DNA from: Candidatus Doudnabacteria bacterium
GTDB taxonomy: Bacteria > Patescibacteriota > Doudnabacteria > UBA920
Direction of reading: 5' to 3'
NCBI GenBank assembly: GCA_003151625.1
Contig: PLYC01000010.1
Span: 4,283 to 68,282, forward strand
DNA length: 64,000 nucleotides
Positions 30,613 through 64,000 of this stretch are shown here, one piece after another. The notes below the pieces were generated by a model, which made no database searches, was not told the origin of the DNA, and saw only the letters and a list, made by a program, of their open reading frames with translations. Both the position numbers and the translations under genes were made by a program. Numbering within the stretch: the first letter of the stretch is position 1; every line of letters begins with the position of its first letter.

Positions 30613-30653
30613 TTAACTGCGCGTTAATTGGCGTAAAAAAATTAAATTATTCA

Positions 30654-33531: not shown

Positions 33532-33544
33532 AATTGGTAAAAAA

Positions 33545-34174
33545 TTAATTAATGCTAAATTTTATCAGCGCCTTTTTTATGACCGAATCCCTTGTTTCAA
33601 ACCCAGGCAGAAATTCTACCTGCTCCTTATAGCTGATATCATCAAAATAACCCAATTGCGACCTGAAAAGTTTTTCGTTAAACTGACCTCCAAATTCTTT
33701 TTTTCCGGTCTCCGATATTTCCTGTAACGAATAATAATCTTTAAGAATAAAATACATATCAACGTAATCTTTCCACTTGCTTCCCTGCCCTATGGCAAAT
33801 GCCTTCATTGCGGCCAACGTCAGCAGGTTGGGCATTTTTATCACGCCACCAAAATTTTCAGGGTAAGCAATATTATAAGGAAAGCGAAAAAAAGTAAATT
33901 TTACCCCATTAAGAACTAGCGTCAATTCGCCAAGTTTGTTGACTATAATTTCGTTTGGAACCTTAAAATCTAAAATTTGATTTAATAAACTTTGGTTGCC
34001 GAATTTTGCCGGGGAAAAAAGATCAAAATCAACAGATCGGCGATGGCCTATTTGCAAAGCCACGGCCGTACCCCCCACTAAGCCAAAGTTTTTTGAAAAC
34101 TTTCCAATTAATGGCAGAAGTTTTACCTGCTCTTTTGTTAAAACTTCTTTATGCAGACTTGACATATTTATCAA
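33545..34174 (-). CDS. AbiEii/AbiGii-family nucleotidyltransferase (type IV toxin-antitoxin toxin)
   Basis: GLVGGTAVALQIGHRRSVDFDLF: a Gly-rich loop plus hDhD nucleotidyltransferase motif typical of PF08843. Confidence 0.55.
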   Translation of the reverse strand: MINMSSLHKEVLTKEQVKLLPLIGKFSKNFGLVGGTAVALQIGHRRSVDFDLFSPAKFGNQSLLNQILDFKVPNEIIVNKLGELTLVLNGVKFTFFRFPYNIAYPENFGGVIKMPNLLTLAAMKAFAIGQGSKWKDYVDMYFILKDYYSLQEISETGKKEFGGQFNEKLFRSQLGYFDDISYKEQVEFLPGFETRDSVIKKALIKFSIN

Positions 34175-34421
34175 AATATAAATTAAAATAATGTTTAATC
34201 TCCGGACGGTAATTTTGCCTCCCGAATTTATCGGGTGTAGATTTTTCGCGGAAAATTTTCGCGGTTTTTTTTATTCCCAGGATTTTTATCATTCCTTGGA
34301 CATCGTCCCAATCGCCGCAATTTAAAACATGCTCCACGATAGACGCCTCGTCGAGCTTGTTTAAGTCTTTAACATACCACACCAGATATGGCCTTTTTTT
34401 GATAAATTCGTGGATACCCAT
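34149..34421 (-). CDS. Small ORF overlapping the AbiEii gene start (possible cognate antitoxin)
   Basis: 90 aa with a 26-nt overlap onto the toxin gene. No motif recognised; shorter than typical AbiEi. Confidence 0.3.
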   Translation of the reverse strand: MGIHEFIKKRPYLVWYVKDLNKLDEASIVEHVLNCGDWDDVQGMIKILGIKKTAKIFREKSTPDKFGRQNYRPEIKHYFNLYFDKYVKSA

Positions 34422-34441
34422 ACCTGTATTAAAGCAAATTT

Positions 34442-36010: not shown

Positions 36011-36092
36011 ACAATCTTCTACTAAATACTAAACTTTCTAAATGTACTAAATTGCGTAATTGAAGTTTAGTATTTTTAGACACTTTAGTATT
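36007..36092. repeat. CTACTAAATACTAA-family long inverted repeat (copy 2)
   Basis: cttctactaaatactaaactttctaaatgtactaaa...tttagtatttttagacactttagtatttagcagaa. Confidence 0.8.
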
Positions 36093-36110
36093 TAGCAGAA
36101 ACTTTTTAGT

Positions 36111-37229
36111 TTATCCCAAAAAATATATCACCACTCCCATTATGCTCGTGACTGCGGCGATTATCCAAAAACGCATAGTGACTTTGGCTTCCGGCCAGCC
36201 GAGAGCTTCAAAATGATGGTGAAGCGGCGCGGACAAAAAAACTTTCTTTTTTAAAAACTTTTTTGAAAATAACTGGATTATGGTAGACACAGCTTCCATT
36301 AAAAATACAAAGCCCACAACGGGCAAAATAAATACGGAATTTGTCAAAAATGCCACTATGGCCAAAAGAACTCCTAGCCCCATTGACCCTGTGTCTCCCA
36401 TAATAAACCTTGCCGGGAAAACATTAAACCACAAAAATGCCAAAAGACTGCCGCAAATTACTCCTATAAAGGTCGCTAAGTCGTGTTTGCCCTGTAAAAA
36501 TGCAATTAGCCCAAAAGCAAAAAATGAAATCATTAAAGTGCCGCCCGCAAGCCCGTCTAAACCGTCTGTCTGATTCACGGAAAAACTGGTGGCAATTACG
36601 ACGAAAATAAAAAATGGAATAAATAGCCAGCCCAAATGCAGATTCCCCGCAAATGGGATGTGCACAAAATCAAAACCCAGTTTGAAATAAAACCACCACG
36701 CGCCAATTGCCGCTACGATTGAATACAGCACGAGCTTAAACCTAAACCGCAATCCCCTGCCATTGTGGCCACGATGGTTAATATCCAGCCAATCGTCTAT
36801 TAACCCAACCAGCGATGCGCCAAGTAAAGCTCCCAATGGTAAAAGAGTCTCTTTGCGGGAATAAAAGTCAAAATCATTAAAAACATCGACATGTAAAACC
36901 CGGTCAAAAAACCAAAATACAAACATTAAAATTACCAGCGTGCCCCAGACTAGTATCCCGCCCATAGTTGGCGTTCCTGCTTTGTGCTTATGCATTTCCG
37001 TAAATAAGGGAGTGCTCCCGTCGTTGCGGATTTGTTTACCAAGCTTATTTCTGTATAAAAATCTTGTAAAAAGCGGGGTAACCGCAAGAGCAAAAATAAA
37101 ACCCAGAGACGTTAAAGCAAAAATTTTAGTCAAAACCGAAAATCCCATCATATTACGTTTATTGTACCATAAAAAAGCTGGTCTGGAAAATGTCAGCCTG
37201 ATGTCTAAGGTGCTCTTTGGCATTGCCAT
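36111..37229 (-). CDS. mraY: Phospho-N-acetylmuramoyl-pentapeptide transferase (true start probably the Met at ~37151)
   Basis: KAGTPTMGGI, DDWLDI, and a polytopic membrane profile. Confidence 0.85.
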   Translation of the reverse strand: MAMPKSTLDIRLTFSRPAFLWYNKRNMMGFSVLTKIFALTSLGFIFALAVTPLFTRFLYRNKLGKQIRNDGSTPLFTEMHKHKAGTPTMGGILVWGTLVILMFVFWFFDRVLHVDVFNDFDFYSRKETLLPLGALLGASLVGLIDDWLDINHRGHNGRGLRFRFKLVLYSIVAAIGAWWFYFKLGFDFVHIPFAGNLHLGWLFIPFFIFVVIATSFSVNQTDGLDGLAGGTLMISFFAFGLIAFLQGKHDLATFIGVICGSLLAFLWFNVFPARFIMGDTGSMGLGVLLAIVAFLTNSVFILPVVGFVFLMEAVSTIIQLFSKKFLKKKVFLSAPLHHHFEALGWPEAKVTMRFWIIAAVTSIMGVVIYFLG

Positions 37230-37271
37230 ATCTAAATGTCAAAGAGCACTTTTGACATTTTTACGACAGAG

Positions 37272-38234
37272 CTATTCCCAATTAAAACTGGTTTCTACAG
37301 CCGACTTGAGCTTTAAAGTATCTCCTTCCCGGTTTTGGCTGTCCAAAACTAAAATAATTATTTGATGCCCGCCTATGGCTACTTTAGTCGCCATTGCGCC
37401 ATTGGCTTCGTTAGTAAAGCCGGTTTTAACAGCTTGGATATCGGGATGATTTTTTATAAGCAAATTGGTGGCAGTTGCGGAATAAATTTTCCCCAAAGCC
37501 CCGCTGAATTTATAGCCGGTCATCCGGCCTAAATCGGTAAAATCTGTAAAATGCTGGGTATTGGTGATCAAAAGTTTCAAATCCTCGGCCGTGGAATAAT
37601 TGTCGCTGTTGTCAAAACCCATTGGGTTGCTAAAACTACTGTTGACCATTCCTAAAACAGCCGCCTGACCATTCATAAGATCGACAAAATTACTTCCAGA
37701 CGATTGTGAAGTAAAATCCGCAAGCGCTTTTGCCGCGTCGTTGCAAGAGCCGATTAACATAGAGTTAAAAACGTCCAAAGCCTTAACTTCGTCCCCGATA
37801 GCGAGGCCTAAATCTGGCTTAACATTTAAAATATTCTTACTCGTAATTGCAAAAGTTTTGTTGAGATTGGAGTTATTATAAGCCGCTAAGGCTGTCATCA
37901 ACTTTGTTAAACTGGCTATAGCCAATTTCTGGGTAGGATTTTTGCTTAACAATTCCTGGCCGCTGTCTAAATCAAAAACCAGAAAACTTTGGGCGCTTAC
38001 ATCGGAAAGGTCCGGATTCTTTGTCTGAATTATGGAAGTTTGGGGATTATCTTTAGGCTTATTTATTATTGGTGCGGGGACCGCCGTGCTTGCCCCCAAA
38101 ACTTCCGGCTTATACGTTTGGCTAAGAGCAATATCTTGTGTTGATAAAATCGCTGTTGTTTGAATTAAAACAAGCAACAGCACAAACATTAGCCAATAAG
38201 GAAGAATTTTAAATAGTTTTGTTTTTACGGGCAA
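37272..38234 (-). CDS. Serine-type D-Ala-D-Ala carboxypeptidase (S11, DacA-like)
   Basis: SxxK active site in ASLTKLMT, SGN-like motif, signal/TM N-terminus. Confidence 0.7.
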   Translation of the reverse strand: MPVKTKLFKILPYWLMFVLLLVLIQTTAILSTQDIALSQTYKPEVLGASTAVPAPIINKPKDNPQTSIIQTKNPDLSDVSAQSFLVFDLDSGQELLSKNPTQKLAIASLTKLMTALAAYNNSNLNKTFAITSKNILNVKPDLGLAIGDEVKALDVFNSMLIGSCNDAAKALADFTSQSSGSNFVDLMNGQAAVLGMVNSSFSNPMGFDNSDNYSTAEDLKLLITNTQHFTDFTDLGRMTGYKFSGALGKIYSATATNLLIKNHPDIQAVKTGFTNEANGAMATKVAIGGHQIIILVLDSQNREGDTLKLKSAVETSFNWE

Positions 38235-38891: not shown

Positions 38892-38925
38892 AAAAGAATC
38901 CTCTCACGAAAGAGAGGATTCTTTT
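38892..38925. terminator. Perfect bidirectional terminator hairpin between the convergent trxA and ATPase genes
   Basis: aaaagaatcctctc-acgaaa-gagaggattctttt. Confidence 0.6.
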
Positions 38926-40843
38926 AAATTTGATGCGATTCACCTGGGTTTAAAACTGTTTTTTGCATTTCGACTGCTTTATTTGGGATAACCGCCGCTG
39001 CCACAGGGGCAGCATGAGTCTGAATTTGATTTTTGTATTCCGTTTCAGGAGCCATTGCCGGAGGATTTGCTTTTGAGGGCTGGCTAAAGATTTGGCTAAC
39101 CGCTTCACTTGTCTGGCGGTTTGCCTGGTAAATTTTTTCCTGATGAAGGCTGGCAATCTGATCCCAGATCGGATTTTCCTTCTTTTGCTGTCCGCGGTCT
39201 TGCCCAAAGTTCTTGTTTGACTGCCTGGGTTGGTGGTTGGAATTTTGTTGCGGCGGCCTGTTAAAACGATCTTTTGATTTTTGGGGTCTGTCCGTATTTC
39301 TGTGCTCCTGATGTTTTTTTTCGAAGTTTTGCTTTGGAGCAGCGGACATATTGGCTTGTTGCGACAATTTTTGGGGTACGGGAATTTTTTGAACAATTAC
39401 TTCCGGTGCTGGTTCAGGTTTTTCTTCTTGAGGCTCCGCCTGGGATTGTCCTTGAGACGTAACCGGCTGATTTTGGTCGGCGGTCGCTGTTTGATCTTCC
39501 GTTTGCGGTGTCCCAATTAGCACCGCGGCTTCCTGATGATATTCCGCGCCCATCCAACGGGAAATTTTTTCTTCAACCTCCGCCACCGGGTTGGCATAAC
39601 GTTCCCGGGAAACTTTTAGAACTTTTTCCGAGTTGCCCGTTAAGTGTGCGGGGTTCGGCGAAAGTGTAATCGCGGAAAAAGGGTCGGAAGCGACACCGTT
39701 AATCATCAATTTTAAAATAATCGAATATTTTGGTAAATTAACCAGGTCGCTGGGGGTAAAAATCGGCTCAAACTCGGTTTCCAAAAATTCCGCGTCCACA
39801 GCGCCGATTCTAAATACGACAATTGTCCCGACGTTGCCAAAAATCGCGTCCCTAACCTTCGTACTCTTGTCTTCTTCCAACTGGGCAATGTACTGATGCC
39901 CGACAATTAAATTTAAACGGTATTTGCGGGCTTCGCTTAAAATAGTGGCAAAACTTTCCGTGGCAAAATTTTGGAATTCATCCACGTACAAATAAAAATC
40001 TTTTCTCTCTTTTTCCTCGATATCGGTTCGAGACATGGCAGCCAGCTGAATTTTGGTAACCAGCATCGCGCCGAGCAAAGCCGAATTATCTTCACCGACT
40101 TTGCCCTTTGACAAATCCATAATCAGGATTTTTCGATTATCCATTATTTCGCGCAAATCGATTGTACTTTTGGGCTGACCAACTATATTACGAATAATCC
40201 CCGAACTTAAAAACTGTCCGACTTTATTTTGAATCGGGGCTATGGCTTCGGTGCGATACTTTTCATTATAATTTGCAAACTCATCGACCCAAAAAGCCCG
40301 AACCATAGGGTCTTTAATATTATCAACAATTTTCTTCCGGTATTTTTTATCCACATACATCCTGGTAATACCCAATAAAGTATTCCCCGGACTGTCCAGC
40401 AAAGCTAAGATAGTATTGTTCAAAATATATTCCATTCTGGCCGACCACAGATTGGCCCAGATTTTTGTAAACACACCCATCAAGCCAGATGCCACCAAAT
40501 GCTTAAATTTGGGGTCTACAGACTCTAAAATGTTAAAGGCCACCGGATGCTCCAAATCCGCGGGATTAAAGTAAACCACGTCGTTAATACGGCTAGCCGG
40601 GACACAATCCAGTATTCTTTGTACCGAATCCCCATGAGGGTCTAAAAAAGCAATCCCATGGCCATTTTGGATGTCCTGAATAACCATATTCTCCATAAGG
40701 GTCGTTTTCCCCATTCCGGTTTTTCCTATTAAATACATGTGCCGGCGGCGGTCATCGGTTTTAATACCAAAAGGCACTTCCTTGTTTCGGAAGTTAGTTT
40801 TGGCAAATACGGTAATTAAATTTTCATTGTTTTTGTTTTCCAT
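38924..40843 (-). CDS. VirD4/TraD/TrwB-like (type IV secretion coupling protein-like) P-loop ATPase with a Q/P-rich low-complexity C-terminal tail
   Basis: LIGKTGMGKTTLM Walker A, FLDPHGD (compare VirD4 DPKGE), YLYVDEFQNF Walker B. No N-terminal TM helices. 639 aa, with ~200 aa of Q/P/N-rich tail. Confidence 0.5.
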   Translation of the reverse strand: MENKNNENLITVFAKTNFRNKEVPFGIKTDDRRRHMYLIGKTGMGKTTLMENMVIQDIQNGHGIAFLDPHGDSVQRILDCVPASRINDVVYFNPADLEHPVAFNILESVDPKFKHLVASGLMGVFTKIWANLWSARMEYILNNTILALLDSPGNTLLGITRMYVDKKYRKKIVDNIKDPMVRAFWVDEFANYNEKYRTEAIAPIQNKVGQFLSSGIIRNIVGQPKSTIDLREIMDNRKILIMDLSKGKVGEDNSALLGAMLVTKIQLAAMSRTDIEEKERKDFYLYVDEFQNFATESFATILSEARKYRLNLIVGHQYIAQLEEDKSTKVRDAIFGNVGTIVVFRIGAVDAEFLETEFEPIFTPSDLVNLPKYSIILKLMINGVASDPFSAITLSPNPAHLTGNSEKVLKVSRERYANPVAEVEEKISRWMGAEYHQEAAVLIGTPQTEDQTATADQNQPVTSQGQSQAEPQEEKPEPAPEVIVQKIPVPQKLSQQANMSAAPKQNFEKKHQEHRNTDRPQKSKDRFNRPPQQNSNHQPRQSNKNFGQDRGQQKKENPIWDQIASLHQEKIYQANRQTSEAVSQIFSQPSKANPPAMAPETEYKNQIQTHAAPVAAAVIPNKAVEMQKTVLNPGESHQI

Positions 40844-40932
40844 CGTTCAAAATATCCCCTGTCTTTACAACTACTGATTGGCGGCTACTTTACTAATTTA
40901 AGATAACGCACATTAGTATATTAGTAAAGCAA

Positions 40933-42288
40933 TTATAAAACTTCTGCCGTTGGCAGGTTCGAAGGGGCCCTGCCCTTTTTGCTTTCTACAGTGTGTACGC
41001 CAGCAGGCACCAAAGTTGTTTCGGTTGTTATTGGGAAGTGATACAAAGTGGCGATTTCCTCTACGCTCAGCAAAAACTTAGGACTACCAACATACATACT
41101 GCGGTTTTTGTAACCTCTTAAAAACCAATACTTACGGCGTTTGGTTTCTCTTTCTAAAAATGATTTTTCTAAAGTATCCGAAACCAAAGCATTTACTTTT
41201 GTCCAATTCGCGCGGTCTATTTTTAAAGTATTATGCACGCCGGCGCCACCGCCCGGGCTAAGATGCCTCATTGAGCCAATAATTTCAGTGCGCTTAGTTT
41301 TATCAAATTGGTCTTTAGGCGCTATATAAATGGTTCTAATTTTTGCATTGAAACTGGCTTTGTTGAGCTTTTGCTCAATTAAAGCGACTTTTTCTTTTTC
41401 GCCTTCAGTCATACTTATCCAATTATTTCTGGGCTTGTTTTCAGGTTCGGCATGTCCATGTCCGCCGCCAAAAAAAGTCTCAGAGTAGCTGAATTTGGCA
41501 AACCATTCAAACGGCAAAAGTAAAATACTGCTTAATGTTATTTTGTGCGGCATTTCTTCCCCGGTCAGATCCTTTATTTTTCTTTCAGCCCTTTCCGCCC
41601 ACTCGTTATTTTGGATTGGCTGAATCATAAGCTGAATAGCCAATACTTCATCGGGGTTTATTCTTTCCATTGTTTCGATAGTGCTGGTTAGAGAATCAAT
41701 GACTTTTTCTTCCGCAGAAGGGTGCTCAAAATCCTTATAAGTTTTTATTGGGATAACGCTGTCCTGAACCATTTTCCATTCGGTGCCAAAAAAATCATAG
41801 AGACCATCTTCGTTATGGTGTACGTTTATATGAAATTTTTCCATATAGTCATCGACAACGGAAATTTCGGCGGATGGATACTGGGAATAAAACGCCGACT
41901 CAACCAAATGCTGATATCTTTTTGGCGTTCTTATCACAAATGAGACGTGCCCACCCAGGCTGATAATTTCCAAAGAGTACCAAAGCTGAAAGCGGCCCTG
42001 CATATATTTTTGTTCAAAGGTAATACTGGCGTGCAGAGCGTGCATTTGGGCAAAAATATTTTCAACCGCCATGGTGCTGGCTCTGTTTTCTTTTGGTACG
42101 CGGATTTCTAAAAATACCCATTCGGTGCCTCTGACAAATTGCCCCTGAATTTCTTCCAAGTATTCAAAATAAAGCATGTAAATCAGGCCTAAAACAAAAA
42201 GCACCCATCCGTAATAGGTAACTACTACCAAAAAGGCTATATGGAAAACATCGTTAAAATTTGGAAATATGCTTGTTAAAACTTCCAT
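40933..42288 (-). CDS. Hypothetical membrane protein (two N-terminal TM helices) co-located with the VirD4-like ATPase
   Basis: 451-aa ORF with a hydrophobic N-terminus; no known motif recognised. Confidence 0.4.
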   Translation of the reverse strand: MEVLTSIFPNFNDVFHIAFLVVVTYYGWVLFVLGLIYMLYFEYLEEIQGQFVRGTEWVFLEIRVPKENRASTMAVENIFAQMHALHASITFEQKYMQGRFQLWYSLEIISLGGHVSFVIRTPKRYQHLVESAFYSQYPSAEISVVDDYMEKFHINVHHNEDGLYDFFGTEWKMVQDSVIPIKTYKDFEHPSAEEKVIDSLTSTIETMERINPDEVLAIQLMIQPIQNNEWAERAERKIKDLTGEEMPHKITLSSILLLPFEWFAKFSYSETFFGGGHGHAEPENKPRNNWISMTEGEKEKVALIEQKLNKASFNAKIRTIYIAPKDQFDKTKRTEIIGSMRHLSPGGGAGVHNTLKIDRANWTKVNALVSDTLEKSFLERETKRRKYWFLRGYKNRSMYVGSPKFLLSVEEIATLYHFPITTETTLVPAGVHTVESKKGRAPSNLPTAEVL

Positions 42289-42307
42289 TTTTTATTTCAT
42301 TACTTCA

Positions 42308-42377
42308 CTTCTACTAAATACTAACCTTTAAAATTTCTGCTTTAGCATTTTTAACTTCATTAGTATTTAGTAGACGC
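42308..42377. repeat. CTACTAAATACTAA-family inverted repeat (copy 3, shorter)
   Basis: cttctactaaatactaacc...cattagtatttagtagacgc. Confidence 0.7.
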
Positions 42378-43459
42378 TACACTAGTGCGTATGAGTTCTT
42401 GCCGACTTTAGCAAAAAGTTTTTTATTGGATAGGCCGACTAAAATTGTATTCTTTTTAACCATTCGGCGTTTTAATACTTCTTCGATAATCCTTTCTTTT
42501 TTTAAAGGCTGCGGAGATTGCTTTAAAATTTCTACGATGACATCGGCGACCACACCAGGTTTATAACCCCATTCAGAAAGCGCGTAAATACCGCGCCCGA
42601 TTAAAATAAACCGTTGGTCCTTAATTAATTCATTATGAACGGTTTCTTTATAGGCTTTGCGGTCATCAAAACCGGCTTTGTTGATCATGTCCGTAATAAC
42701 GGAATAGTGTTCTGGTTTCTGATGGTGCTTCATAACCAAATAAGCTTTATCGCCAACGTCTTTTGGTTTAACTTCTTTCCATAAACTCAAACCCCAGTGT
42801 CCAAAGACATTTTTTTCAATTTCCACCGTTAGCTCTAGATAATTTAAAATAATTCGGTCATTAAGTTCGGCCTGGTTTTGCCTATAAAATTCAGTTTGTT
42901 TAAAGTGTTCTAAAAATTCTTCCGCCGCAACAGGGGTATTTTTTTCACCGATGATTTTCTTGCTTTCGGCTACAAATCCGGCGAGTAAATCTTCCCGGAA
43001 TAAAACCGAAACCCAGGCTTTTTTGTAGTTTTGATGGATAAAATGATCCAACTCCTCAACTAAATGCAAAATAAAAATTAAGGCGTTCTTTTCTTTGTCA
43101 TCAGTAATATTTAAGTGCATTAATAAACTCTCTTCGGCAATTATCCGGCCGTGTTCCGTAACGATATCAAGCAAAAAATTCTTTGCCGAAGCGAAGCTTT
43201 CCTTTTGGATGCTAGTCTTTTTTAAATGTTTTAACAAGTCTTTTTCTATTTGCCTGACTCTTTCTCTGGTTAGGCTATGCTCCTGGCCAATGGCGGCCAA
43301 AGTCTTGCTCTGGGCTCCTTCCAGTCCGTAGCGATGAATTAAAATACGCCGATCTCGCTCTTTAAGTGAATCTAAAATTTCTTTGACCACCTCTGAAGGC
43401 TTAAACTGGCTCAAAGATTCGTTCTGCTTGGTATGAATTATAGTATCAAGAATGCCCAT
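42377..43459 (-). CDS. Protein with an N-terminal sigma-70 region 4 HTH fused to an unknown ~260-aa domain
   Basis: RRILIHRYGLEGAQSKTLAAIGQEHSLTRERVRQIEKDLLKHLKK matches sigma-70 region 4. Confidence 0.5.
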   Translation of the reverse strand: MGILDTIIHTKQNESLSQFKPSEVVKEILDSLKERDRRILIHRYGLEGAQSKTLAAIGQEHSLTRERVRQIEKDLLKHLKKTSIQKESFASAKNFLLDIVTEHGRIIAEESLLMHLNITDDKEKNALIFILHLVEELDHFIHQNYKKAWVSVLFREDLLAGFVAESKKIIGEKNTPVAAEEFLEHFKQTEFYRQNQAELNDRIILNYLELTVEIEKNVFGHWGLSLWKEVKPKDVGDKAYLVMKHHQKPEHYSVITDMINKAGFDDRKAYKETVHNELIKDQRFILIGRGIYALSEWGYKPGVVADVIVEILKQSPQPLKKERIIEEVLKRRMVKKNTILVGLSNKKLFAKVGKNSYALV

Positions 43460-54753: not shown

Positions 54754-54973
54754 TAAAATTAGTGCTTAGTAATTAAGGAATAGTGCTTAGAGTAAAGCAG
54801 ATACAAAGTATTATAACAGAATAGGCGATAAATAAAAAGGGGTTCGAAGCATAATAAATGTCTTTCAATTTTGATAAAATTTTGGCAAATTGAAGGCGGG
54901 GTTGGAATAAAATTAATATCTTTTATTACTTTACCCCGCCGCTTTGCCTTCTCGCTTCCAAGTGCATCGGCGC

Positions 54974-55249
54974 TTAGACAACGCTTTCAGCGACTGCCTT
55001 CGCTTCCGGTCTGCATAACAGCAGGTTCAGCGATACAACCATTGAAGGTTTGTTGCATGTTGCGCAACGGGTTGTGTGGCCGGCTCCGGTCAGGTGTAGG
55101 CAGTCCTCGAACAACCACACAATACCAGGCGCGCCGCCTTTGAGCTTATCCAGCAAGCTCTGTTGGTTTCTGTCGAGGACGACAAGAGCCTCCAGCCTTT
55201 GGACAACTTCTAAGTACTTTACCGCTTGTTGCTGCGTAGCAGGTGACAT
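54974..55249 (-). CDS. Small ORF X3 in the GC-rich cassette (91 aa, perfect AAGGAG Shine-Dalgarno)
   Basis: ccttAAGGAGaaacgATG; the protein has a Cys/His cluster HTTRCATCNKP. Compositionally distinct from flanking genes. Confidence 0.3.
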   Translation of the reverse strand: MSPATQQQAVKYLEVVQRLEALVVLDRNQQSLLDKLKGGAPGIVWLFEDCLHLTGAGHTTRCATCNKPSMVVSLNLLLCRPEAKAVAESVV

Positions 55250-55509
55250 CGTTTCTCCTTAAGGATGTAATTGCCGGGATTAGCCGACTCAAACTAAAAA
55301 ACTTCCGCCTTCGTTAAGGTCGGAAGTTCGGAGTCGATGAGGGTTTTACGCTTTGTTTATCAACTCAAAATTTCCAAGCTCAACGCCCAGCGTAAAATAA
55401 AAATAGAAATTTTGAGTTAAATTATGCATTTCCATTATTTTAGCAGGTTTGTATATATTGTCAAATTATGTACTGTTGTCAAATTATTAAAGAGGAAGCC
55501 GCCCGCCTC

Positions 55510-55698
55510 CTATGTTCCGGATTTGGGCGGCTTTTGCTTGCGAGGTTTGAACCCGAATCTCTTCCTAAAGGAAGAAACGGTCATTTTCTCCGACGTGAGA
55601 TCCGTGGAAGCCCCTGCGTACAGGGTTTTCCTCCGGTAAGTTACGGTCAAACTGCCGCTTGGCAGCCATTCGTAGTTATGAAGTTCGCAGCTATTCAT
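55510..55698 (-). CDS. Small ORF X2 in the GC-rich cassette (62 aa, GGAGGG Shine-Dalgarno)
   Basis: ctGGAGGGtctATGaat; basic C-terminus RKRFGFKPRKQKPPKSGT. Confidence 0.25.
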   Translation of the reverse strand: MNSCELHNYEWLPSGSLTVTYRRKTLYAGASTDLTSEKMTVSSFRKRFGFKPRKQKPPKSGT

Positions 55699-55928
55699 AG
55701 ACCCTCCAGTCCGTGCGACAAGCCAGCACTCTTGTTCGCGATGTAAATTTGTGCTGGTGATTAAGCAATTAAGTGCCCAATCATCAAAACAAATCTTGGG
55801 GGTGAAGAAGGTCACCCCGGCCTTTGACTACAGTGCAAAGCACGAATTGATGAAATCAGTCGTTTGTGCGTCATTTATTTTTCGTTGAAGGCCCTCTACG
55901 CATCGGAGGCAAGACATTTTCCCTGTTG

Positions 55929-56088
55929 TCAAACAGTCCATTGAATATTCACGGCCTTTTCTGCTCTACTTGACTGCCGATTACGATTTGCGTAGTTACC
56001 ATATGTTTTTCGGTATTGTCGGCTCATTGCCGTAAATCGAAACTGCTCTTGTTCGAATTGTGTTTTAAGCTGTGCCAATGTAGACATC
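55929..56088 (-). CDS. Small ORF X1 in the GC-rich cassette (52 aa, AAGGAG Shine-Dalgarno)
   Basis: ccAAGGAGaacagATG; preceded by the palindrome tgcaaatatttgca at 56221-56234. Confidence 0.25.
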
Positions 56089-56340
56089 TGTTCTCCTTGG
56101 GCGAGCGGCTGCCAGCGCGCAATAATCCGCTCTGTAGTGTTTGCGCTGGCGAGGCATCCCAAATAAAAAGGAGGCGGCGTCAGTGCAAATAAAAAACACC
56201 CTTGGGCAAAACCCGCGGGTGCAAATATTTGCACTTTTGAAGGGCTTGCCTAGGAGGCCACCCACCAAACTAAGTTAATACTTTGTGACAAAATCTTCAT
56301 ATCTGTATACTATACCAATGTGGATCCTTTGTCAACTACT

Positions 56341-56352
56341 GTACTAGTACAC
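56341..56352. promoter_or_regulatory. TrpR-type operator palindrome TGTACTAGTACA (distal copy)
   Basis: A perfect 12-bp palindrome embedded in the 23-nt direct repeat ctactgtactagtacactaatac. It contains the CTAG core of the Escherichia coli trp operator half-site GTACTAGT. Confidence 0.5.
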
Positions 56353-56433
56353 TAATACATACGATTTAGGCGACTTTTGATCCAACCAACAGGTTGTCCA
56401 CAGCCCTTGAAACAAAACCCGCAACGTGCTACT

Positions 56434-56445
56434 GTACTAGTACAT
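56434..56445. promoter_or_regulatory. TrpR-type operator palindrome TGTACTAGTACA (proximal copy, 14 nt upstream of the ATG)
   Basis: Second copy of the same 23-nt repeat, ctactgtactagtacattaatgc. Confidence 0.5.
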
Positions 56446-56458
56446 TAATGCTACGAAT

Positions 56459-56852: not shown

Positions 56853-57173
56853 TTAATGTATTTTTGACCTTCTGCGCCTAAGACTAACCTGCTTGTCTTT
56901 GTGGCGGGTTAGCTGTTCCTTAATTTTAGGCATTACCAAGTCAAAGGCCGCGTAAATATCCAGCCCCCGGGCTTCGGCAAAATGTCCTTTGGGCTGGATG
57001 TCTATTTCCGCTCGAAACGGCGGTTCGTTTTTGCGTTTTTTCTCAACTTCTATTTCCACGCGAATTTTATCTTCCGAGCGGAAGAACACTTCCAGTGTTT
57101 TAAGCTTATCTTCAATATAGTTTTTTATTGACGGCGTTAAGGTGGTGTTGGTGGCTTTTATATTTATGTTCAT
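56853..57173 (-). CDS. hpf: Ribosome hibernation promoting factor (HPF/RaiA family, short form)
   Basis: [42 protein letters not shown], typical of S30AE. Confidence 0.8.
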
Positions 57174-57300: not shown

Positions 57301-58401
57301 TTAAAAACCAATCAATTCCGGCTCAAATTGTAATTCAATGCCGGTTTTAGCCAAAACGGTTTGCCTTACAATGTTGGCTAAATTTAGGACATCTCTGGCT
57401 GTGGCCTGACCGGTTTGGTTAATAATTACCAATGGCTGATTTGGATTTATACCCGCTCCTCCGCTTTGCAGGTTTTTTAATCCGCACAAATCTATCAGGA
57501 AGGCCGCCGGCACCTTGACCAAATTGAGTTGATTTTCTTTTAGCACGATTTTAACGGCCGTTAAAATCGTGCTATCTAAAAATTTCTTTTTTTCAAGTTC
57601 GTCGACTTTTTCTTTTCCAAATTCACCCAATACCCTATCCTTTAAAGCCTGATAGGCCTCCGGACTTAAAATCGGGTTCTTAAAAAAGGATCCTGCGTTT
57701 CCCAGCTTAGCTTCTTTGGGAAACGGAAATTTCTTATCCCTTATGGCTATTATCTCTTGCCTAATTTGGTCCGGTTTCGGGCTCTGCCCTTGAAACTTCA
57801 TTTTTAAATCCCGGTAATCCAAATTGGGCTTGCCGTTTTTTTCCAGCTTAAAAACAATATTAAAAATTATGTGCTTGCCTTTATCGGCCGAGTTAAAAAT
57901 ACTTTGGCGGTAAGCAAAGCCGCAATTGGCAGCGGGTAAGTTTAAAATTTGATGGGTTTCTTTGTTAAACACCGCTACCGATTCAATAACCTTAGAAGCT
58001 TCCTGACCGTAAGCGCCAACGTTTTGCACGGCAATAGCGCCGGTGGAACCAGGGATGCGAGATAAATTTTCAATTCCCCACCAGTTATTTTTCACGGCAA
58101 ACTTGACCACCTCGTCCCAAACCTCTCCAGACGCGACTTTTAGCAAAACATCATTATCATTATTATTTATTACTTCAATCCCCTTATTTACAACTTTAAT
58201 AACGAGTCCGTTAAAACCTTCATCGCTAACCAAAATATTGCTTCCCCCGCCCAATACAAAAGTTTTTAGCTGATGATTTTTGGCAAACTCATAAGCCTCT
58301 AAAGCGTCAAACTGATCTCCCACCACGCAAAACCACCTGGCCACCCCGCCAATTTTGAACGAGGTATATGGAGCTAATAAAACACTTTCCTGGATTTGCA
58401 T
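57301..58401 (-). CDS. murB: UDP-N-acetylenolpyruvoylglucosamine reductase
   Basis: FKIGG, LGGGSNIL FAD-binding motifs, and a C-terminal MurB domain with an extension. Confidence 0.8.
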   Translation of the reverse strand: MQIQESVLLAPYTSFKIGGVARWFCVVGDQFDALEAYEFAKNHQLKTFVLGGGSNILVSDEGFNGLVIKVVNKGIEVINNNDNDVLLKVASGEVWDEVVKFAVKNNWWGIENLSRIPGSTGAIAVQNVGAYGQEASKVIESVAVFNKETHQILNLPAANCGFAYRQSIFNSADKGKHIIFNIVFKLEKNGKPNLDYRDLKMKFQGQSPKPDQIRQEIIAIRDKKFPFPKEAKLGNAGSFFKNPILSPEAYQALKDRVLGEFGKEKVDELEKKKFLDSTILTAVKIVLKENQLNLVKVPAAFLIDLCGLKNLQSGGAGINPNQPLVIINQTGQATARDVLNLANIVRQTVLAKTGIELQFEPELIGF

Positions 58402-58403
58402 AG

Positions 58404-59258
58404 TTAAATTAATTTTAATTTACCATTCTTCATAAAATCTTTCGCCGTTTCAATCCCAATTTTAACATTTTTTGACAGTTTTGAAGCATCCTTCTCCAGC
58501 CAGTCTCCTGGCAATACAAATTCCGGCTGGATAACAAGTAAATTTTTATCTTTTTCAATTTTATTCAAAATACCGTTGCACAATCGGGGCGTCATGGCCA
58601 CCATCTTTTTAAGCTTTGGTTCCTTTAAAAGCACTTTGGAGCCTAACTCCCAAGCCCAATTTTTTAAACGATACCCTTTGGGGTATGTAAGCAAAACGAC
58701 TTTGGTTAAATAATTTTTTAATTCCGGGTGGTTAATTGGCGGCTGGGCGGTAAAACCTCCGTCATAATAAACTTCTCCATTAAGACAAACATCTTTCGTA
58801 AGAATTGGGGCGCTTACAGAAGCTATCAGAGTGTCAATAACGTTATCGGACTTCGTAAGGTCAATAAAGTACGCCTTACTGGCCCCGGGCTTAGTTAAGC
58901 TAACAACCAACTGCGATTTAGCATTCTTTAACTTTTTTAGGTTCAAAGGCTCAATCTTTGTTATAACCTTGCGTAAATAATCCAAATCGTAATAAGGATG
59001 AAAATTTTTCCAAACTATAAAACCTTTAGGCAAATGTTTTTCCCATATCCGCAGCCCCTCTTTGATTTGGCCTGTTAAAAAATAAGCCAAACAAAATGCA
59101 CCCGCGGATGTCCCGACGCATAAATCAAAATATCCGTCTTTTATATCGTTCTCAACAAATCCTTTTAACACTCCGGCCATAAACGACCCTTGCATGCCTC
59201 CGCCATCGCAAATTAAAGCTCTTTTTTCCCTTAAGCTTTTTGCTGATTTTTTAACCAT
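58404..59258 (-). CDS. Patatin-like phospholipase (paralog 1)
   Basis: ICDGGGMQGSF (GGGxxG oxyanion loop), GTSAG (GxSxG nucleophile), and an aspartate-containing C-terminal motif. Confidence 0.7.
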   Translation of the reverse strand: MVKKSAKSLREKRALICDGGGMQGSFMAGVLKGFVENDIKDGYFDLCVGTSAGAFCLAYFLTGQIKEGLRIWEKHLPKGFIVWKNFHPYYDLDYLRKVITKIEPLNLKKLKNAKSQLVVSLTKPGASKAYFIDLTKSDNVIDTLIASVSAPILTKDVCLNGEVYYDGGFTAQPPINHPELKNYLTKVVLLTYPKGYRLKNWAWELGSKVLLKEPKLKKMVAMTPRLCNGILNKIEKDKNLLVIQPEFVLPGDWLEKDASKLSKNVKIGIETAKDFMKNGKLKLI

Positions 59259-59440
59259 AAATATTTATACTGCTTAGTATTGGTAAAAGAAAAGCCGAGT
59301 GAAATTATGAATCTTTGTGTTGTTAGCGGCAGCTTTCTGTCTCATTATGGCCTACATTCTCATAGGCCTAATCATAGCCGCGGAATGCTGCAAGAGCATC
59401 AAACGGATTCAAGAATTATCTTCATCGTCATTTGTAAAAA

Positions 59441-60319
59441 TTAAAGCAACTTGATAGGCTCCGAGGATCCGAACAAATTTTTAACCTGGCCAGCGAACAT
59501 TTGGCAGTCGTTTTTTAAAACAGCGCTTCGGGTTTCAAATCTTTCCATCTTTTGCCAAAATTCGCTTTTTATAGTATCAAAGTCCGGGCTGACTTCGCAA
59601 ACTTTTTGGTTGTCCAGTTTGGAAAAGTTTTCTCTAATGTAGTCTGTTTGCCAAGAATAATTATAAATTACCAATACGTCCGTGGCTCCGGAATTTAAAA
59701 CGTGCTCAAAAAAATCGGCAACCGCCCGGTCCGCCACAATATCCCGGTAATAACTGCCCCTGATTTTTATTTTTCCGCCCGCGATATATTTTAGGCACAA
59801 AGACGCCTCCAGCAAAGAGCGGTATTCGGCTTCCCTAAAATCGTGAACTTCCAAATATTCGGTTCGGCCGTCTTTAGAAAGGTTGATAAACATATTTTGA
59901 AGTTTTGTTTTACCCTGGAGGATGGTTTTAAAATCAAGTTTTTCCTCATCAACCACCTTTAACAGATACTCCATATCGGCAATCTTCCAAAGCCGAAAAA
60001 AGTTTAAAAATTTTCTCCCGGAAAGCTTTTTGTAATAGGTCTCGGCCGCTTTTTTTATTTGGCCGCCCAAAAAAGCCGAAGCGTTTATAAACCCGGAAGA
60101 CATGGTATAAATTTCGTCAAAAGCCCTCGACAAGCCAAGCTCCTCAAGCGCCACCAAAGCCCCCGCGCCTCTGACGCCGACCATTACCCCGCCAAATAAG
60201 ACCAGAGAAATTTTCCTCCCGTCGCCAATAGGTACAGACTTATTTTTTCTGGCCAACAGATGTTCAACAACCAAAGGCATTTTATCTTGGATCATATATT
60301 TAAGAGTGCTTGCCGCCAA
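59441..60319 (-). CDS. Patatin-like phospholipase (paralog 2, divergent)
   Basis: LFGGVMVGVRGAG, and YTMSSGF (a GxSxG variant). Confidence 0.55.
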   Translation of the reverse strand: MAASTLKYMIQDKMPLVVEHLLARKNKSVPIGDGRKISLVLFGGVMVGVRGAGALVALEELGLSRAFDEIYTMSSGFINASAFLGGQIKKAAETYYKKLSGRKFLNFFRLWKIADMEYLLKVVDEEKLDFKTILQGKTKLQNMFINLSKDGRTEYLEVHDFREAEYRSLLEASLCLKYIAGGKIKIRGSYYRDIVADRAVADFFEHVLNSGATDVLVIYNYSWQTDYIRENFSKLDNQKVCEVSPDFDTIKSEFWQKMERFETRSAVLKNDCQMFAGQVKNLFGSSEPIKLL

Positions 60320-61016
60320 ACGTTTTTTTAACTAATAACGTCGCGTCCGGAACGTTGGTAATTATTGCCTTTATAGCTTTGTTTTGACTGTATTCGGTAA
60401 TTTTTTTTGGGCTGTCTATCGTCCAAGCCCAAATTGGCAGGCTATTTTGTTCGGCTTTTTTTATGAATTTTGGTTTAAGAAGTCTAAAATTTGGGGCAAT
60501 AAAATCCGCTTTTGCCAAAATGGCTTTTTTAAATGGCCCCCCGATTTTGGTTGTAACCCTAAAATAATCGCAAAGTAATCCGCAGATAATTTTTTTGTCG
60601 TAAGCTTTTACGGCCTTAATAGCAGAATCGTAAAACGAAGTAATAACAAAATCCTTATACGATAAACTGCCTTTTAAAACATTAGTCACTTTTGATTCAT
60701 AACCCTTTTCTTTTAATTCAATATCCAGCTTTATTTTACCTTTAACCGGCTTGATTAAATCGTGCAGCGTAGGGATATCAAAATTTCTTTTTTGCGCTGC
60801 TTTACGCAAGTCCCAATATTTTGTTTTTTTGATTCTTAGTCTTCCTACCGTACTATCGTGATGCAAAATCAAAACTCCATCCGCTGTTTTCCTGACATCG
60901 GTCTCTATATAATCCGCGCCCAGCTCAATTGCCTTAGCAAAGGCTTTTAATGTATTTTCGTGTTCAAAATTGGAAGCGCCTCTGTGGGCAATTATAAACG
61001 GTTGTCCCAATTTCAT
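60300..61016 (-). CDS. Glycerophosphodiester phosphodiesterase (GDPD)
   Basis: IIAHRGASNFEHENTLKAFAKAIELGADYIETDVRKTADGVLILHHD. Confidence 0.8.
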   Translation of the reverse strand: MKLGQPFIIAHRGASNFEHENTLKAFAKAIELGADYIETDVRKTADGVLILHHDSTVGRLRIKKTKYWDLRKAAQKRNFDIPTLHDLIKPVKGKIKLDIELKEKGYESKVTNVLKGSLSYKDFVITSFYDSAIKAVKAYDKKIICGLLCDYFRVTTKIGGPFKKAILAKADFIAPNFRLLKPKFIKKAEQNSLPIWAWTIDSPKKITEYSQNKAIKAIITNVPDATLLVKKTFGGKHS

Positions 61017-62473
61017 AATATTTCTTTTAACTCATAGGCCAAGCGGTTAAAGCTACCCACGGCCATAACAATAATTACATCGGTTGCTTTTGCCTCAGCT
61101 TTTATAATATTTAACGCCTGTTCTTTATTTTCAATAAGCCTGATTGAGTTGTCAGTTGCGAGTTGCGAGTTATAAGCCTTAATTGCCTCAATTACGTCCA
61201 AGGATTTAATTGTTGCTTCGGAGGCTTTCTCGCGGGCTGGATAAATTTCGGATATGAGTACCTCATTGGCATCGCCAAATGACGTGGCAAGATCGGCCAG
61301 GGTTGCTTTGGTGCGGGAAAAGGTGTGGGGCTCGAATACAGCCCAAATTTTGCCTTTAGGATAGCGCAGACGCGCGGCAGAAAGGGTTTCGCGGACTGCT
61401 GTGGCGTGGTGGGCGTAGTCGTCTATTATAGTAACGCCGTTTTTTACGCCAACCAGTTCAAAACGCCTTTTAACTCCCTGGTAAGTTATTAAGTCAAGCG
61501 CAATTTGATCCTGCGCAAACCCTAACGATCGTAAAGTTGCAATAGCGGCTAACGCATTGTAAACGTTTATTTTCCCGGGCAGCTGGATTTTGTACTGCTC
61601 CGTTTGCCCAAGCAGTTTGCTGGAAACGCTCTTGGAGAATTTATTAATAACTTCAAGGGTGGTAAATTCCCCATATTGCACCTGCTCTACTCTAAAATCC
61701 GCTTCATTGTCTATGCCAAAACTGACGCTACTTATGTTAGACTCGTTAACAAGCTTGGTAAGCGAGGCGTCATCGGCGTTATAAATAATTAAACCGTCAT
61801 CGGGCATTTTTTCAATCAGTAGGCGAAATTCTTGCTCTAACGCTTCAAGATTCGGGAATAGATCCGGATGGTCGTATTCAAGGTTTGTTAAAACCAAAAT
61901 GTCCGGTTTGTAATACTGAAATTTTGGCGTTGGGTCGTCGAACTCTTCTTTATATTCATCCCCTTCAAATACAAAATAGTTTCCGTCTCCCAAGTAAAAA
62001 TTACTCTGGTAATTTTGCAAAACCGCGCCGGCCATAAAAGAACTATCATCAAGATTTTTAAATAAGTGCCCGAGCAGTCCGGTGGTAGTAGACTTGCCAT
62101 GAGTGCCGGCCACAACAATCCTTAGTTTTTCTTTTGACAGATGATGCAAAAGTTCCGCAAAGCCGCAATGCGGCAAATTTTGTTCATAAATATATTTAAC
62201 TTCCGGGTTTTCTTCACTCTCCCCTGCCGACAAAATAAATAAGTCAGCGCCAGAAGATTTAATTTGCTCCTGATTATAACCCAAAAAATATTTTATTTTG
62301 GACTTTTCCAAAACGTCTTTGGCCGGCGAATAAACTTCTTTGCTATCCGAACCCAATACATCAAACTCGAGCTCCATGGCAATGCTGGCCACCGCGGACA
62401 TGGCAATGCCGCCTATACCCACAAAATACAGCCGGGCGTTTGGCTTTATGATATTTTCCAAATCGTTGTTCAT
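61013..62473 (-). CDS. murC: UDP-N-acetylmuramate--L-alanine ligase
   Basis: FVGIGGIAMSAVA, and VAGTHGKSTTTGLL P-loop. Confidence 0.75.
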   Translation of the reverse strand: MNNDLENIIKPNARLYFVGIGGIAMSAVASIAMELEFDVLGSDSKEVYSPAKDVLEKSKIKYFLGYNQEQIKSSGADLFILSAGESEENPEVKYIYEQNLPHCGFAELLHHLSKEKLRIVVAGTHGKSTTTGLLGHLFKNLDDSSFMAGAVLQNYQSNFYLGDGNYFVFEGDEYKEEFDDPTPKFQYYKPDILVLTNLEYDHPDLFPNLEALEQEFRLLIEKMPDDGLIIYNADDASLTKLVNESNISSVSFGIDNEADFRVEQVQYGEFTTLEVINKFSKSVSSKLLGQTEQYKIQLPGKINVYNALAAIATLRSLGFAQDQIALDLITYQGVKRRFELVGVKNGVTIIDDYAHHATAVRETLSAARLRYPKGKIWAVFEPHTFSRTKATLADLATSFGDANEVLISEIYPAREKASEATIKSLDVIEAIKAYNSQLATDNSIRLIENKEQALNIIKAEAKATDVIIVMAVGSFNRLAYELKEIL

Positions 62474-62482
62474 AAATTGTGA

Positions 62483-63412
62483 TTAAACTACTGATTTTGC
62501 TTTAAGCAACTGCTTAATTTTCGGCAAATTTTGGGCAGCCGAGACTCTGCCAAGTTCATAAAGTTTTTTTAAATTTTCCGGTTCCATTTTTATTTTATTG
62601 GCTTTTGCAACTTTCATTTTTATGACAAGGTCGCACGCCGAGTCGCCCAAGTCAATTTTACTGTTTGCCTGTATTGCCAAATCCATACTCCTGCCAAGTG
62701 TGGTGAATAAATTTGGAATTTCAATTCTATCGTCTAAATTCTTCGGATAAAAATTACTTGCAAATAATTTGATCTCCTTAACAAAAAGCGACTTTTTAAA
62801 AAAATCCAAAAATTTCTTCACACTTAGAAAACCCGGAGCAAAAATATGACTGGTTCCCCCTGTACTTATTCCTACTATTACGTCCGCCCCAAAATTCTTT
62901 AAAGGTTTAACCGGTAAAAACATTAAAAGCCCTCCGTCAACCAAGGTTCTGTTGCCCCATTTTACCGGCTCGAAAATTCCCGGAACTGTACAGGATATTC
63001 TAGCCGCGCTGGCTATTTCACCAATACACAAATCTACAGATTCACCGCTTTCTATGTCAACCGCGGAAAAACTCATTAATGTTTTAACTTCATCAAAATG
63101 AAGCCCTCTTGTAACTTTATCCCTTAATAATTCTTCCAAAACTTCCAGAGAATAAAGGCCGCCGTTGCCGCGCTTTTGGGTTAATATAGCCATAAGCTCC
63201 TTGCGGCTCATATCAAAAACAATTTGTTTAAATTCCTTTAAAGTTCCGCAAGCGTAAGCCGCTGCAACCAAAGACCCGCCGCTGCAGGCGGAAATGTAGT
63301 CTGCTTTAACACCGGCTTCGCTTAAAACTTCCAAAAAGCCAATATAAAAAGTGGTGCGGTTGCCGCTGCCGCTAAAGGCCAAACCCAAAGTTGGTGAAGT
63401 TGATTTTTCCAT
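62483..63412 (-). CDS. Patatin-like phospholipase (paralog 3)
   Basis: FSGSGNRTTF (GxGxR), and ACSGGS (GxSxG). Confidence 0.7.
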   Translation of the reverse strand: MEKSTSPTLGLAFSGSGNRTTFYIGFLEVLSEAGVKADYISACSGGSLVAAAYACGTLKEFKQIVFDMSRKELMAILTQKRGNGGLYSLEVLEELLRDKVTRGLHFDEVKTLMSFSAVDIESGESVDLCIGEIASAARISCTVPGIFEPVKWGNRTLVDGGLLMFLPVKPLKNFGADVIVGISTGGTSHIFAPGFLSVKKFLDFFKKSLFVKEIKLFASNFYPKNLDDRIEIPNLFTTLGRSMDLAIQANSKIDLGDSACDLVIKMKVAKANKIKMEPENLKKLYELGRVSAAQNLPKIKQLLKAKSVV

Positions 63413-64000
63413 TACATGCTTTCCGTTAGCTTATAAATTATTTCGCTAATTTTTTCGTTGGCTTCGTGAGGCATTATTTGCCCAATGTTGTGCTTCAAAA
63501 TATTTTGCGCCTCCTGAGCAAACAACAGCTTCCTAATGAGCGCGACAAAACCGGCCGGGGTAATTCGTTTTTGGTTAAGGACAATTGCCGCTTCGGAGTG
63601 TATTAATAACAGCCCATTTAGCTCCTGATGGCTTTGCGGCATGGGGACAATTATACTTAATTTCCTTAAATTAGACAACTCGGTAAGGGTGGAAAGCCCG
63701 GCTCTTGCCAGAACAATATCGGCCGCTGCATAAGCGCCGGCCATATTCTGTATAAAATCGTAACTATGATAATTTTCATAAATAGACGGCTGTATTTTTC
63801 CGCGGCCGCCGGTGGAATGGATTATTTGTACCGTTTTAGTAAGTTGCGGCAGGCAGTCCAAAATTAAAGTATTAAAAAATTCGGCTCCCGTGCCGCCGCC
63901 TAAAACCAGCAATGTAGGCAAGTCCGTTTTTAAATGAAAAAATTTTTGAGCCTCTCCTTTATCCGCGGCTCTTAGCTCTTCCCGAAACGGATTACCGGTT
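63412..64000 (-). CDS. murG: UDP-GlcNAc:undecaprenyl-PP-MurNAc-pentapeptide GlcNAc transferase, C-terminal half only (the N-terminus lies beyond the window end)
   Basis: LLVLGGGTGAEFFN, and a GT28 C-terminal domain. The reading frame stays open in-frame to position 64000, so the track start at 63921 (a TTG) is an artefact of truncation. Confidence 0.7.
   Translation of the reverse strand, partial: TGNPFREELRAADKGEAQKFFHLKTDLPTLLVLGGGTGAEFFNTLILDCLPQLTKTVQIIHSTGGRGKIQPSIYENYHSYDFIQNMAGAYAAADIVLARAGLSTLTELSNLRKLSIIVPMPQSHQELNGLLLIHSEAAIVLNQKRITPAGFVALIRKLLFAQEAQNILKHNIGQIMPHEANEKISEIIYKLTESM

Follow-up and report, generated by a model that had tools for sequence, protein, structure and literature searches.

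Why should a run of peptidoglycan synthesis genes in a member of the Patescibacteria hold three patatin-like phospholipase genes and a glycerophosphodiester phosphodiesterase (GDPD) gene? The question is raised by positions 57301–64000 of a 64-kb stretch of DNA (64,000 nucleotides (nt), called the window here) from a Candidatus Doudnabacteria bacterium, in which all seven open reading frames (ORFs) lie on the minus strand. The original prediction, an earlier note made on this DNA, gave their order as murB–patatin–patatin–GDPD–murC–patatin–murG, and the ORF coordinates together with the Pfam and NCBIfam family assignments bear this out. It also treated the patatins as a set of three paralogs inside the mur operon, and this part holds for one gene only: the patatin gene between murG and murC (pat3) is fixed throughout the clade, whereas the two between murC and murB (pat2 and pat1, which represent subfamilies called type B and type A in this text) and the GDPD gene are strain-variable cargo of a slot. 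The reading that we prefer has two layers, with pat3 as a core acyl hydrolase and GDPD/B/A as an accessory cassette for phospholipid catabolism, and it is held with about even confidence.

The pat3 gene (62483–63412, minus strand) encodes a protein of 309 amino acids (aa). A pat3 profile scan of species-representative genomes led to 41 loci, each annotated against a labelled reference set and all 41 belonging to Patescibacteria (the homologues carry the names Doudnabacteria or Patescibacteria), and murG adjoins pat3 in every one of these species-level loci. The order murG–pat3–murC–...–murB–hpf–(trpR-like)–secA is nearly universal among them. In the window, the TAA stop of murG and the ATG of pat3 overlap by 1 nt (TAATG), which is the form taken by the shared stop and start boundary claimed earlier; across the relatives, the distance between murG stop and pat3 start falls between -17 and +5 nt in 33 of 34 assessable loci, 24 of which overlap. 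pat3 is a clade-wide fixed gene and nearly always start/stop-coupled to murG. Over deep time it also evolves faster than any other member of the block (median 48% identity to the window protein compared to 56–74% for its neighbours), and over the short time that separates the window from a related locus, L003, it shows strong purifying selection, with a ratio of nonsynonymous to synonymous divergence (dN/dS) of 0.05. A literature search on the murG–patatin–murC arrangement, on patatins in Patescibacteria and on these patatin subfamilies gave nothing specific.

The gap between murC and murB presents a different picture. Among 36 species-level loci with both genes, it is empty (300 nt or less) in 25, holds unrelated cargo in eight and A/B patatins in three; two of these three carry an extra gene, DUF3800-like in L015 (beside a B–A pair) and SDR in L050. 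None of the 36 has a GDPD gene in the slot. The synteny in relatives, named earlier as something to check, holds for the murG–pat3 adjacency and is variable for the slot genes. Further contigs show B–A in L010/11, A–A' in L008/9, B–A–B–A on a JGI contig and GDPD–B–A–B–A in L003; a slot GDPD is thus found in the window and L003 only, that is in one lineage, and is contiguous with a type-B gene in both. The closest relative of pat1 (76% identity) occupies the same slot of L008, type A is preceded by type B in five of six lineages and the B–A pairing recurs in at least five lineages. The gap is an insertion/recombination hotspot, and pat1, pat2 and the GDPD gene are its strain-variable cargo in this genome. 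Cargo elsewhere, named by sequence reading without family search, comprises a 647-aa PIF1/AAA_30-like helicase, a DUF3800-like protein, an SDR encoded directly after a type-B patatin and a retropepsin-like ORF; several slot proteins in relatives are acidic, 155–180 aa long and of unassigned function (slot cargo at L017:8827-10770, L015:11506-12057, L050:10250-10936, L049:9746-10138 and L004:12393-12884).

How the cargo comes and goes can be read from the comparison with L003, whose DNA is 92% identical to that of the window over the stretch that begins at murG and reaches about 330 nt into the type-B gene; beyond it the two diverge, with a breakpoint at about residue 75 of the type-B protein according to sliding identity. 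Synonymous divergence (dS) between the two is 0.12 for murG, 0.05 for pat3, 0.40 for murC, 0.05 for the GDPD gene, 1.6 for the type-B gene and 1.04 for murB, a range of about 30-fold (0.05 to >1) between adjacent genes across 7 kb. This dS mosaic and the breakpoint inside the type-B gene make the region a recombination mosaic in which the cargo is exchanged as cassettes; type-A copies share as little as 34–45% identity between genomes whose flanking DNA is 92% identical. The dS contrasts point to frequent homologous recombination among co-occurring Doudnabacteria strains. The GDPD gene has a dN/dS of 0.61, compared to 0.05–0.16 for its conserved neighbours.

What kinds of enzymes are encoded here? 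A hidden Markov model scan of the 64 kb detects exactly three patatin ORFs, and two of them, pat3 (98 bits) and pat1 (69.5 bits), exceed the Pfam Patatin (PF01734) gathering score of 27.7 bits. pat3 is a PlpD/RssA-type patatin-fold protein and a predicted Ser-Asp acyl hydrolase. Its family profile matches the PlpD passenger of Pseudomonas aeruginosa (PDB 5fqu/5fya) with an E of 2.6e-27, and it shares with PlpD and RssA the G-x-G-x-R oxyanion loop, the Ser nucleophile and the D-G-G Asp. RssA/YchK of E. coli (COG1752) is its sole NCBIfam match, at 86.6 bits where the RssA equivalog NF007623 has a cutoff of 272 bits, and the two are therefore related without being orthologues. Unlike PlpD, pat3 has no POTRA or beta-barrel module, which makes it a predicted cytoplasmic protein and not a type Vd autotransporter; it differs from both PlpD and RssA in its A-C-S-G-G elbow instead of G-x-S-x-G and in being embedded between murG and murC.

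The slot patatins are each 284 aa long. pat1 (type A; 58404–59258, minus strand) carries the canonical motifs DGGGxxG, G-T-S51-A-G and D166-G-G, and has a weak Pfam match to DUF6363 too. pat2 (type B; 59441–60295, minus strand), with FGGxMxGxRG, T-M-S66-S-G and Y-R-D185, remains at 24.2 bits on PF01734. Despite this sub-threshold score it is a genuine patatin-fold protein, since three approaches agree: its family profile aligns to that of pat1 in hhalign (99.7% probability, E 2.8e-25, 232 columns), its AlphaFold (AF2) model, built on 39 homologues, reaches a predicted local distance difference test score (pLDDT) of 92.1 and a predicted template modelling score (pTM) of 0.92, and all 24 Foldseek matches of this model in the PDB at E<=1e-3 are patatin-fold lipases (CapV, PlpD, CapE, potato patatin, iPLA2-beta, ExoU and VipD). 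The start of pat2 is the ATG at 60295, according to a 100%-identical 284-aa database protein (P0121) and the L003 orthologue. The 20-nt overlap with the GDPD gene reported earlier was an artefact of a TTG start at 60319, and a 4-nt spacer lies in its place.

The three patatins are as highly diverged as the original prediction had it: pat1 and pat2 share 30% identity over 121 aa, and the match of either one to pat3 is confined to about 60 aa. Type B and type A are sister subfamilies. On the other hand, the profile–profile comparison of type B with the pat3 family is not significant (E 0.19), and pat3 as a close paralogue of the slot patatins is thereby ruled out. The earlier statement that all three keep a GxSxG-type nucleophile is correct for pat1 (GTSAG) and not for pat3 (ACSGG) or pat2 (TMSSG), while the Ser, the last Gly and the Asp are invariant within each family. 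More specifically, G15, G17, R19, S44, G45 and D159-G160-G161 are invariant in the pat3 family (34 homologues, with elbow residue A42 nearly so), G35, G36, M38, S66, G68 and D185 in type B (39 homologues), and T50, S51 and D166 in type A (15 homologues). The Asp motif is DGG in pat1 and pat3 and YRD-I in pat2. In the hhalign register, T-M-S66-S-G of type B falls on G-T-S51-A-G of type A, and Y-R-D185 on Y-Y-D166. Loss of the catalytic dyads, the possibility for which a careful alignment had been proposed, is seen in none of the three patatins; pat2 as a pseudoenzyme is ruled out, its Ser66 and Asp185 being invariant and aligned with the type-A dyad. An exhaustive profile search of 1.84 billion representatives showed type B proper to be a small group of about 55 clusters that match at full length with >190 bits. 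In this core set the first elbow residue varies among T/A/S/C/V/G while Ser, Gly and Asp persist, and broader relatives have GGGMRG, GxSAG and DGG motifs and score 75–90 bits on PF01734. Some serine hydrolases tolerate a residue other than Gly at the first elbow position, an example being the Bacillus lipase with AHSMG.

The GDPD gene (60300–61016, minus strand), first of the slot cargo, encodes a small, UgpQ-like protein of 238 aa that is predicted to be cytosolic. It scores 99.7 bits on PF03009 (threshold 23.6) and stays below every NCBIfam equivalog cutoff (53.6 vs 264 bits). Aligned to 2pz0 and 4oec, it conserves HRG, E-x-D (IETDV) and HHD. Like these UgpQ-type GDPDs it has about 240 aa, a single domain, no signal peptide and a full-length PF03009 match; it differs from them in sitting between murC and a patatin gene and in its relaxed constraint. 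The patatins and the GDPD look catalytically competent because the Ser/Asp dyads are invariant and the H-R/E-x-D/H core is kept.

Is the GDPD linked to the patatins beyond this locus? At positions 5001-6554 of L061 (GCA_040960095.1), a type-B patatin gene and a GDPD gene lie tail-to-tail with a 6-nt 3' overlap. This GDPD is 27% identical to that of the window and stands in a different genome and context, and the pair would represent an independent second origin of the B–GDPD adjacency, which is the best evidence for functional pairing. A few kb upstream of the L061 pair are an alpha/beta-hydrolase and two GT4 glycosyltransferase genes. Altogether, the window/L003 lineage and L061 have the two families linked, and the 36 species-level slots as well as eight metagenomic GDPD relatives (<=39% identity), none of which adjoins a patatin, have them unlinked. 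Additionally, L054 (2799-5702) and L055 carry an MFS gene, an alpha/beta-hydrolase gene and a gene for a GDPD homologue (39% identical) in the same orientation, which by analogy may be an independent arrangement for import, deacylation and head-group splitting in another organism.

As for the place of action, no signal peptide or transmembrane helix was found in pat1, pat2, pat3 or the GDPD, in agreement with the earlier remark that secretion signals were not obvious, and their hydropathy maxima are core beta-strand or nucleophile-elbow segments. These features favour the cell's own membrane or imported lipids over secreted attack on a host, and the host-membrane action suggested by the original prediction is accordingly unlikely. 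The four proteins are basic, unlike MurC, and residues 193–219 of pat3 form two Lys/Phe-rich amphipathic helices, modelled with low confidence, that are compatible with interfacial binding.

With these elements, a scheme for the two layers can be proposed. pat3 would be a patatin acyl hydrolase of the PlpD/RssA type, either soluble or peripherally attached to the membrane. The ancestor of the Doudnabacteria clade would already have had the gene fixed between murG and murC, and the gene is presumably co-transcribed and translationally coupled with murG. The most likely substrates of pat3, we infer, are phospholipids or lysophospholipids, which it would deacylate on the cytoplasmic side of the membrane. 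Its physiological role would be housekeeping lipid turnover or remodelling, with expression alongside the genes of envelope synthesis, in an organism reliant on acquired lipids. In the cassette, the type-B and type-A patatins would take off one or both acyl chains to yield fatty acids and a glycerophosphodiester, which the GDPD would then cleave into sn-glycerol-3-phosphate and the head-group alcohol. A patatin followed by a GDPD forms a biochemically coherent deacylation pathway by analogy with the eukaryotic/yeast phosphatidylcholine deacylation route, in which Nte1/PNPLA6 produces glycerophosphocholine for Gde1/GPCPD1 (PMC10716787). Both routes would use a patatin-domain deacylase and then a GDPD-family diesterase to release glycerol-3-phosphate and a head group; the enzymes considered here are small, single-domain, bacterial and genetically adjacent, with a strain-variable GDPD, and the resemblance is a functional analogy and not an orthology.

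The setting for such a scheme is given by reports of incomplete phospholipid synthesis and an abundance of lysolipids in Patescibacteria (PMC7242380; PMC13293708). From this phylum literature the organism is probably a lipid auxotroph (PMC7242380; PMC13293708), and no lipid-synthesis genes were found within the 64-kb window. Mechanisms of lipid breakdown in Patescibacteria were described as "not identified" (PMC11665869), and the general idea of lipid acquisition is not new, as Vampirococcus has been proposed to obtain lipids with a secreted phospholipase (PMC8080830). It is plausible that the patatins and the GDPD are tools to recycle membrane lipids that the organism probably cannot make. 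The lipid-scavenging or lipid-remodelling pathway suggested by the original prediction therefore keeps part of its ground, through the conserved residues, the Nte1–Gde1 analogue and the adjacency in L061, and loses part of it through the strain-variable GDPD and its dN/dS.

Several points weigh against the two-layer reading. A slot GDPD was seen in 0 of the 36 species-level relatives, and its dN/dS suggests weak or relaxed constraint in this lineage. Type B also occurs solo inside housekeeping operons (rpsP–B–KH–trmD, prfB–B–ftsEX and lepA–B–murJ), which means that the cassette is not obligatory. Naming "phospholipid" as the substrate is an assumption, patatin-fold enzymes having broad ranges. 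Finally, gene neighbourhood is weak evidence in an ultra-small, streamlined genome with tightly packed, co-directional genes: nearly all genes of the window are on the minus strand with minimal spacers, and this near-uniform strand means that the in-operon position ties the cargo genes only weakly to peptidoglycan synthesis. The same observations feed the alternative that pat3, the B–A pair and the GDPD are unrelated esterases and phosphodiesterases that merely hitch-hike in the genome, tied neither to each other nor to the mur genes, since the slot elsewhere takes up a PIF1-like helicase, an SDR, a DUF3800-like protein or acidic unknowns and type B settles alone in ribosomal, translation or division operons. 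This explanation is unlikely, although it has to be taken seriously: the universal pat3–murG adjacency with start/stop coupling, retained at a median aa identity of 48%, indicates stable co-expression and not a transient insertion, the B–A pairing recurs across lineages and the B–GDPD adjacency arose at least twice with GDPDs that have diverged to 27% identity.

The two-layer reading also has a bolder form, in which pat3 is an obligatory, clade-defining partner of the lipid II machinery and the mobile cassette, possibly a heteromeric lipase, completes a salvage and breakdown route. pat3 could then be a membrane-face phospholipase/transacylase whose remodelling of scavenged (lyso)phospholipids keeps pace with the MurG-dependent synthesis of the wall. 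We consider this form rather improbable; if it is true, Patescibacteria would have their first genetically defined route of phospholipid salvage and breakdown.

A further alternative takes the slot patatins A and B not for metabolic enzymes but for conflict or defence effectors kept in a variable hotspot that resembles a defence island; they would be CapV/CapE-like phospholipases that disrupt membranes, or else toxin-like enzymes paired with a paralogue. CapV and CapE, lipases of cyclic-oligonucleotide-based antiphage signalling systems (CBASS), are, among proteins of solved structure, nearest to A and B in both sequence and fold (hmmsearch 30–33 bits; Foldseek E 2e-9 to 1e-6, template modelling score ~0.6) and have a similar compact size. 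pat1 has weak PADLOC "phospholipase effector" matches (47 bits) and a weak match to the NCBIfam CBASS_lipase (32.4 bits), the slot is hypervariable and recombinogenic with DUF3800-like and helicase genes in relatives, and type A diverges rapidly between genomes with nearly identical flanks. However, the CBASS_lipase cutoff is 200 bits, the other three proteins do not match this family, and PADLOC matches are absent for pat2, pat3 and the GDPD. No cyclase or CBASS gene lies near the window or the related loci, where the neighbours are mur genes, GDPD and patatins, and a CD-NTase, another sensor or an immunity gene is adjacent in none of the loci. Type B furthermore differs from CapV and CapE in its relaxed elbow (T/A/S/C/V-x-S-x-G) and in a Y-x-D in place of D-G-G. 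Membership of CBASS or another known defence system is ruled out by scores far under the cutoffs and by the absent partner genes, and a defence role in the wider sense appears very unlikely, the cargo being start/stop-packed with murC and murB, linked in two lineages to a GDPD, a family without known defence role, and represented by solo type-B genes in housekeeping operons. It is just as improbable that pat3 serves envelope-glycan or peptidoglycan-linked chemistry, as an esterase/transacylase on a lipid-linked intermediate or on a glycolipid/lipoglycan made by Bac_transf/GT4 enzymes: its murG–murC position downstream of a Bac_transf and three-GT4 block is invariant in every relative examined, but its motifs are those of hydrolytic patatins and we know of no precedent for a patatin acting on lipid II-type substrates.

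The locus matters for Patescibacteria, which are thought unable to make their own membrane lipids and for which it supplies concrete candidates. The kinds of enzymes are already known, and the proteins carry "patatin-like" labels in public records. The novelty lies in the clade-wide operon insert, the B–A pairing, the relaxed-elbow type-B subfamily and the hotspot; the advance is thus one of organisation and candidate assignment, not of a new mechanism. Throughout a candidate phylum-level clade, pat3 keeps its position as faithfully as the mur genes keep theirs, while a mobile cassette of two patatin subfamilies, with or without a GDPD, would degrade phospholipid to fatty acids, glycerol-3-phosphate and head group. 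That a "cell-wall operon" can mix an ancient fixed insert with a fast-turnover hotspot calls for caution in predicting function from neighbourhood.

The genes that frame the insert and the slot are well assigned. The 3' part of murG (63412–64000, minus strand) matches Pfam Glyco_tran_28_C with 101 bits, and TIGR01133 covers its C-terminal half. Its frame is open to base 64000, so the gene leaves the window and does not start at 63921, and relatives carry full-length murG. Upstream of murG, beyond the end of the window, every relative examined has the block of Bac_transf and three GT4 genes (L001:3299-8910, L003:527-6675, L004:3359-8908 and L008:637-6331). This block has a variable position of its own between the first and second GT4 genes, occupied by a methyltransferase, an SDR, a NUDIX protein or an unknown 285-aa protein. 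murC (UDP-N-acetylmuramate--L-alanine ligase; 61013–62473, minus strand) starts 9 nt past pat3, scores 347 bits on TIGR01082 (cutoff 335), has all three Mur ligase domains and overlaps by 4 nt at its stop with the start of the GDPD gene. The slot is closed by murB (UDP-N-acetylmuramate dehydrogenase; 57301–58401, minus strand; NCBIfam equivalog NF000755, 310 bits vs a cutoff of 277), and pat1 ends 2 nt ahead of it. The only sizeable intergenic gap in the run from murG to murB is the 182-nt spacer between pat2 and pat1 (59259–59440), whereas the B and A genes overlap in L003 and L010. Counts of promoter-like and terminator-like sites equal the shuffled expectation across 56.7–64 kb, including this spacer. 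Downstream of murB lies hpf (56853-57173; Pfam Ribosomal_S30AE).

Other parts of the window offered observations of their own. A second cell-wall block (26700-38234, minus strand) lies 20 kb from the murG–murB block and contains genes for a D-Ala-D-Ala carboxypeptidase, mraY, an amidohydrolase, an unknown 209-aa gene, murD, ftsW, a 743-aa DUF4012 protein and murJ. The dcw cluster is thus in two pieces and has non-canonical genes among its members. Between the Sec genes and this block (38924-43459, minus strand) are genes for a TrwB/VirD4-like coupling ATPase (639 aa), an unannotatable 451-aa protein and a protein that joins sigma-70 region 4 to a HARE-HTH domain.

A conserved non-coding island (55285-55510, minus strand) is found in an ORF-poor gap of 1.7 kb (54754-56458) that runs from secA to the trpR-like gene. 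It retains 85–92% nucleotide identity in relatives whose murB proteins are about 68% identical, and comprises a TTGACA-N16-TAAAAT promoter-like motif, a 22-bp hairpin with a variable apical loop and compensatory changes at four pairs, and a terminal GC hairpin followed by a T-run. An Rfam search of the secA–trpR spacer gave noise and no match, and small ORFs of the spacer are not conserved. The island is a candidate small RNA or attenuator-type leader with segments that may pair alternatively.

Lastly, at about 6480-6790 (minus strand), a group I intron detected by Rfam (6526-6728) interrupts a tRNA-Leu gene (anticodon CAA) that ARAGORN missed. When the flanks are joined (end of exon 1 at about 6747-6751, start of exon 2 at about 6506-6510) they give a tRNA-Leu, and the gene adjoins those for tRNA-Met and tRNA-Asp.

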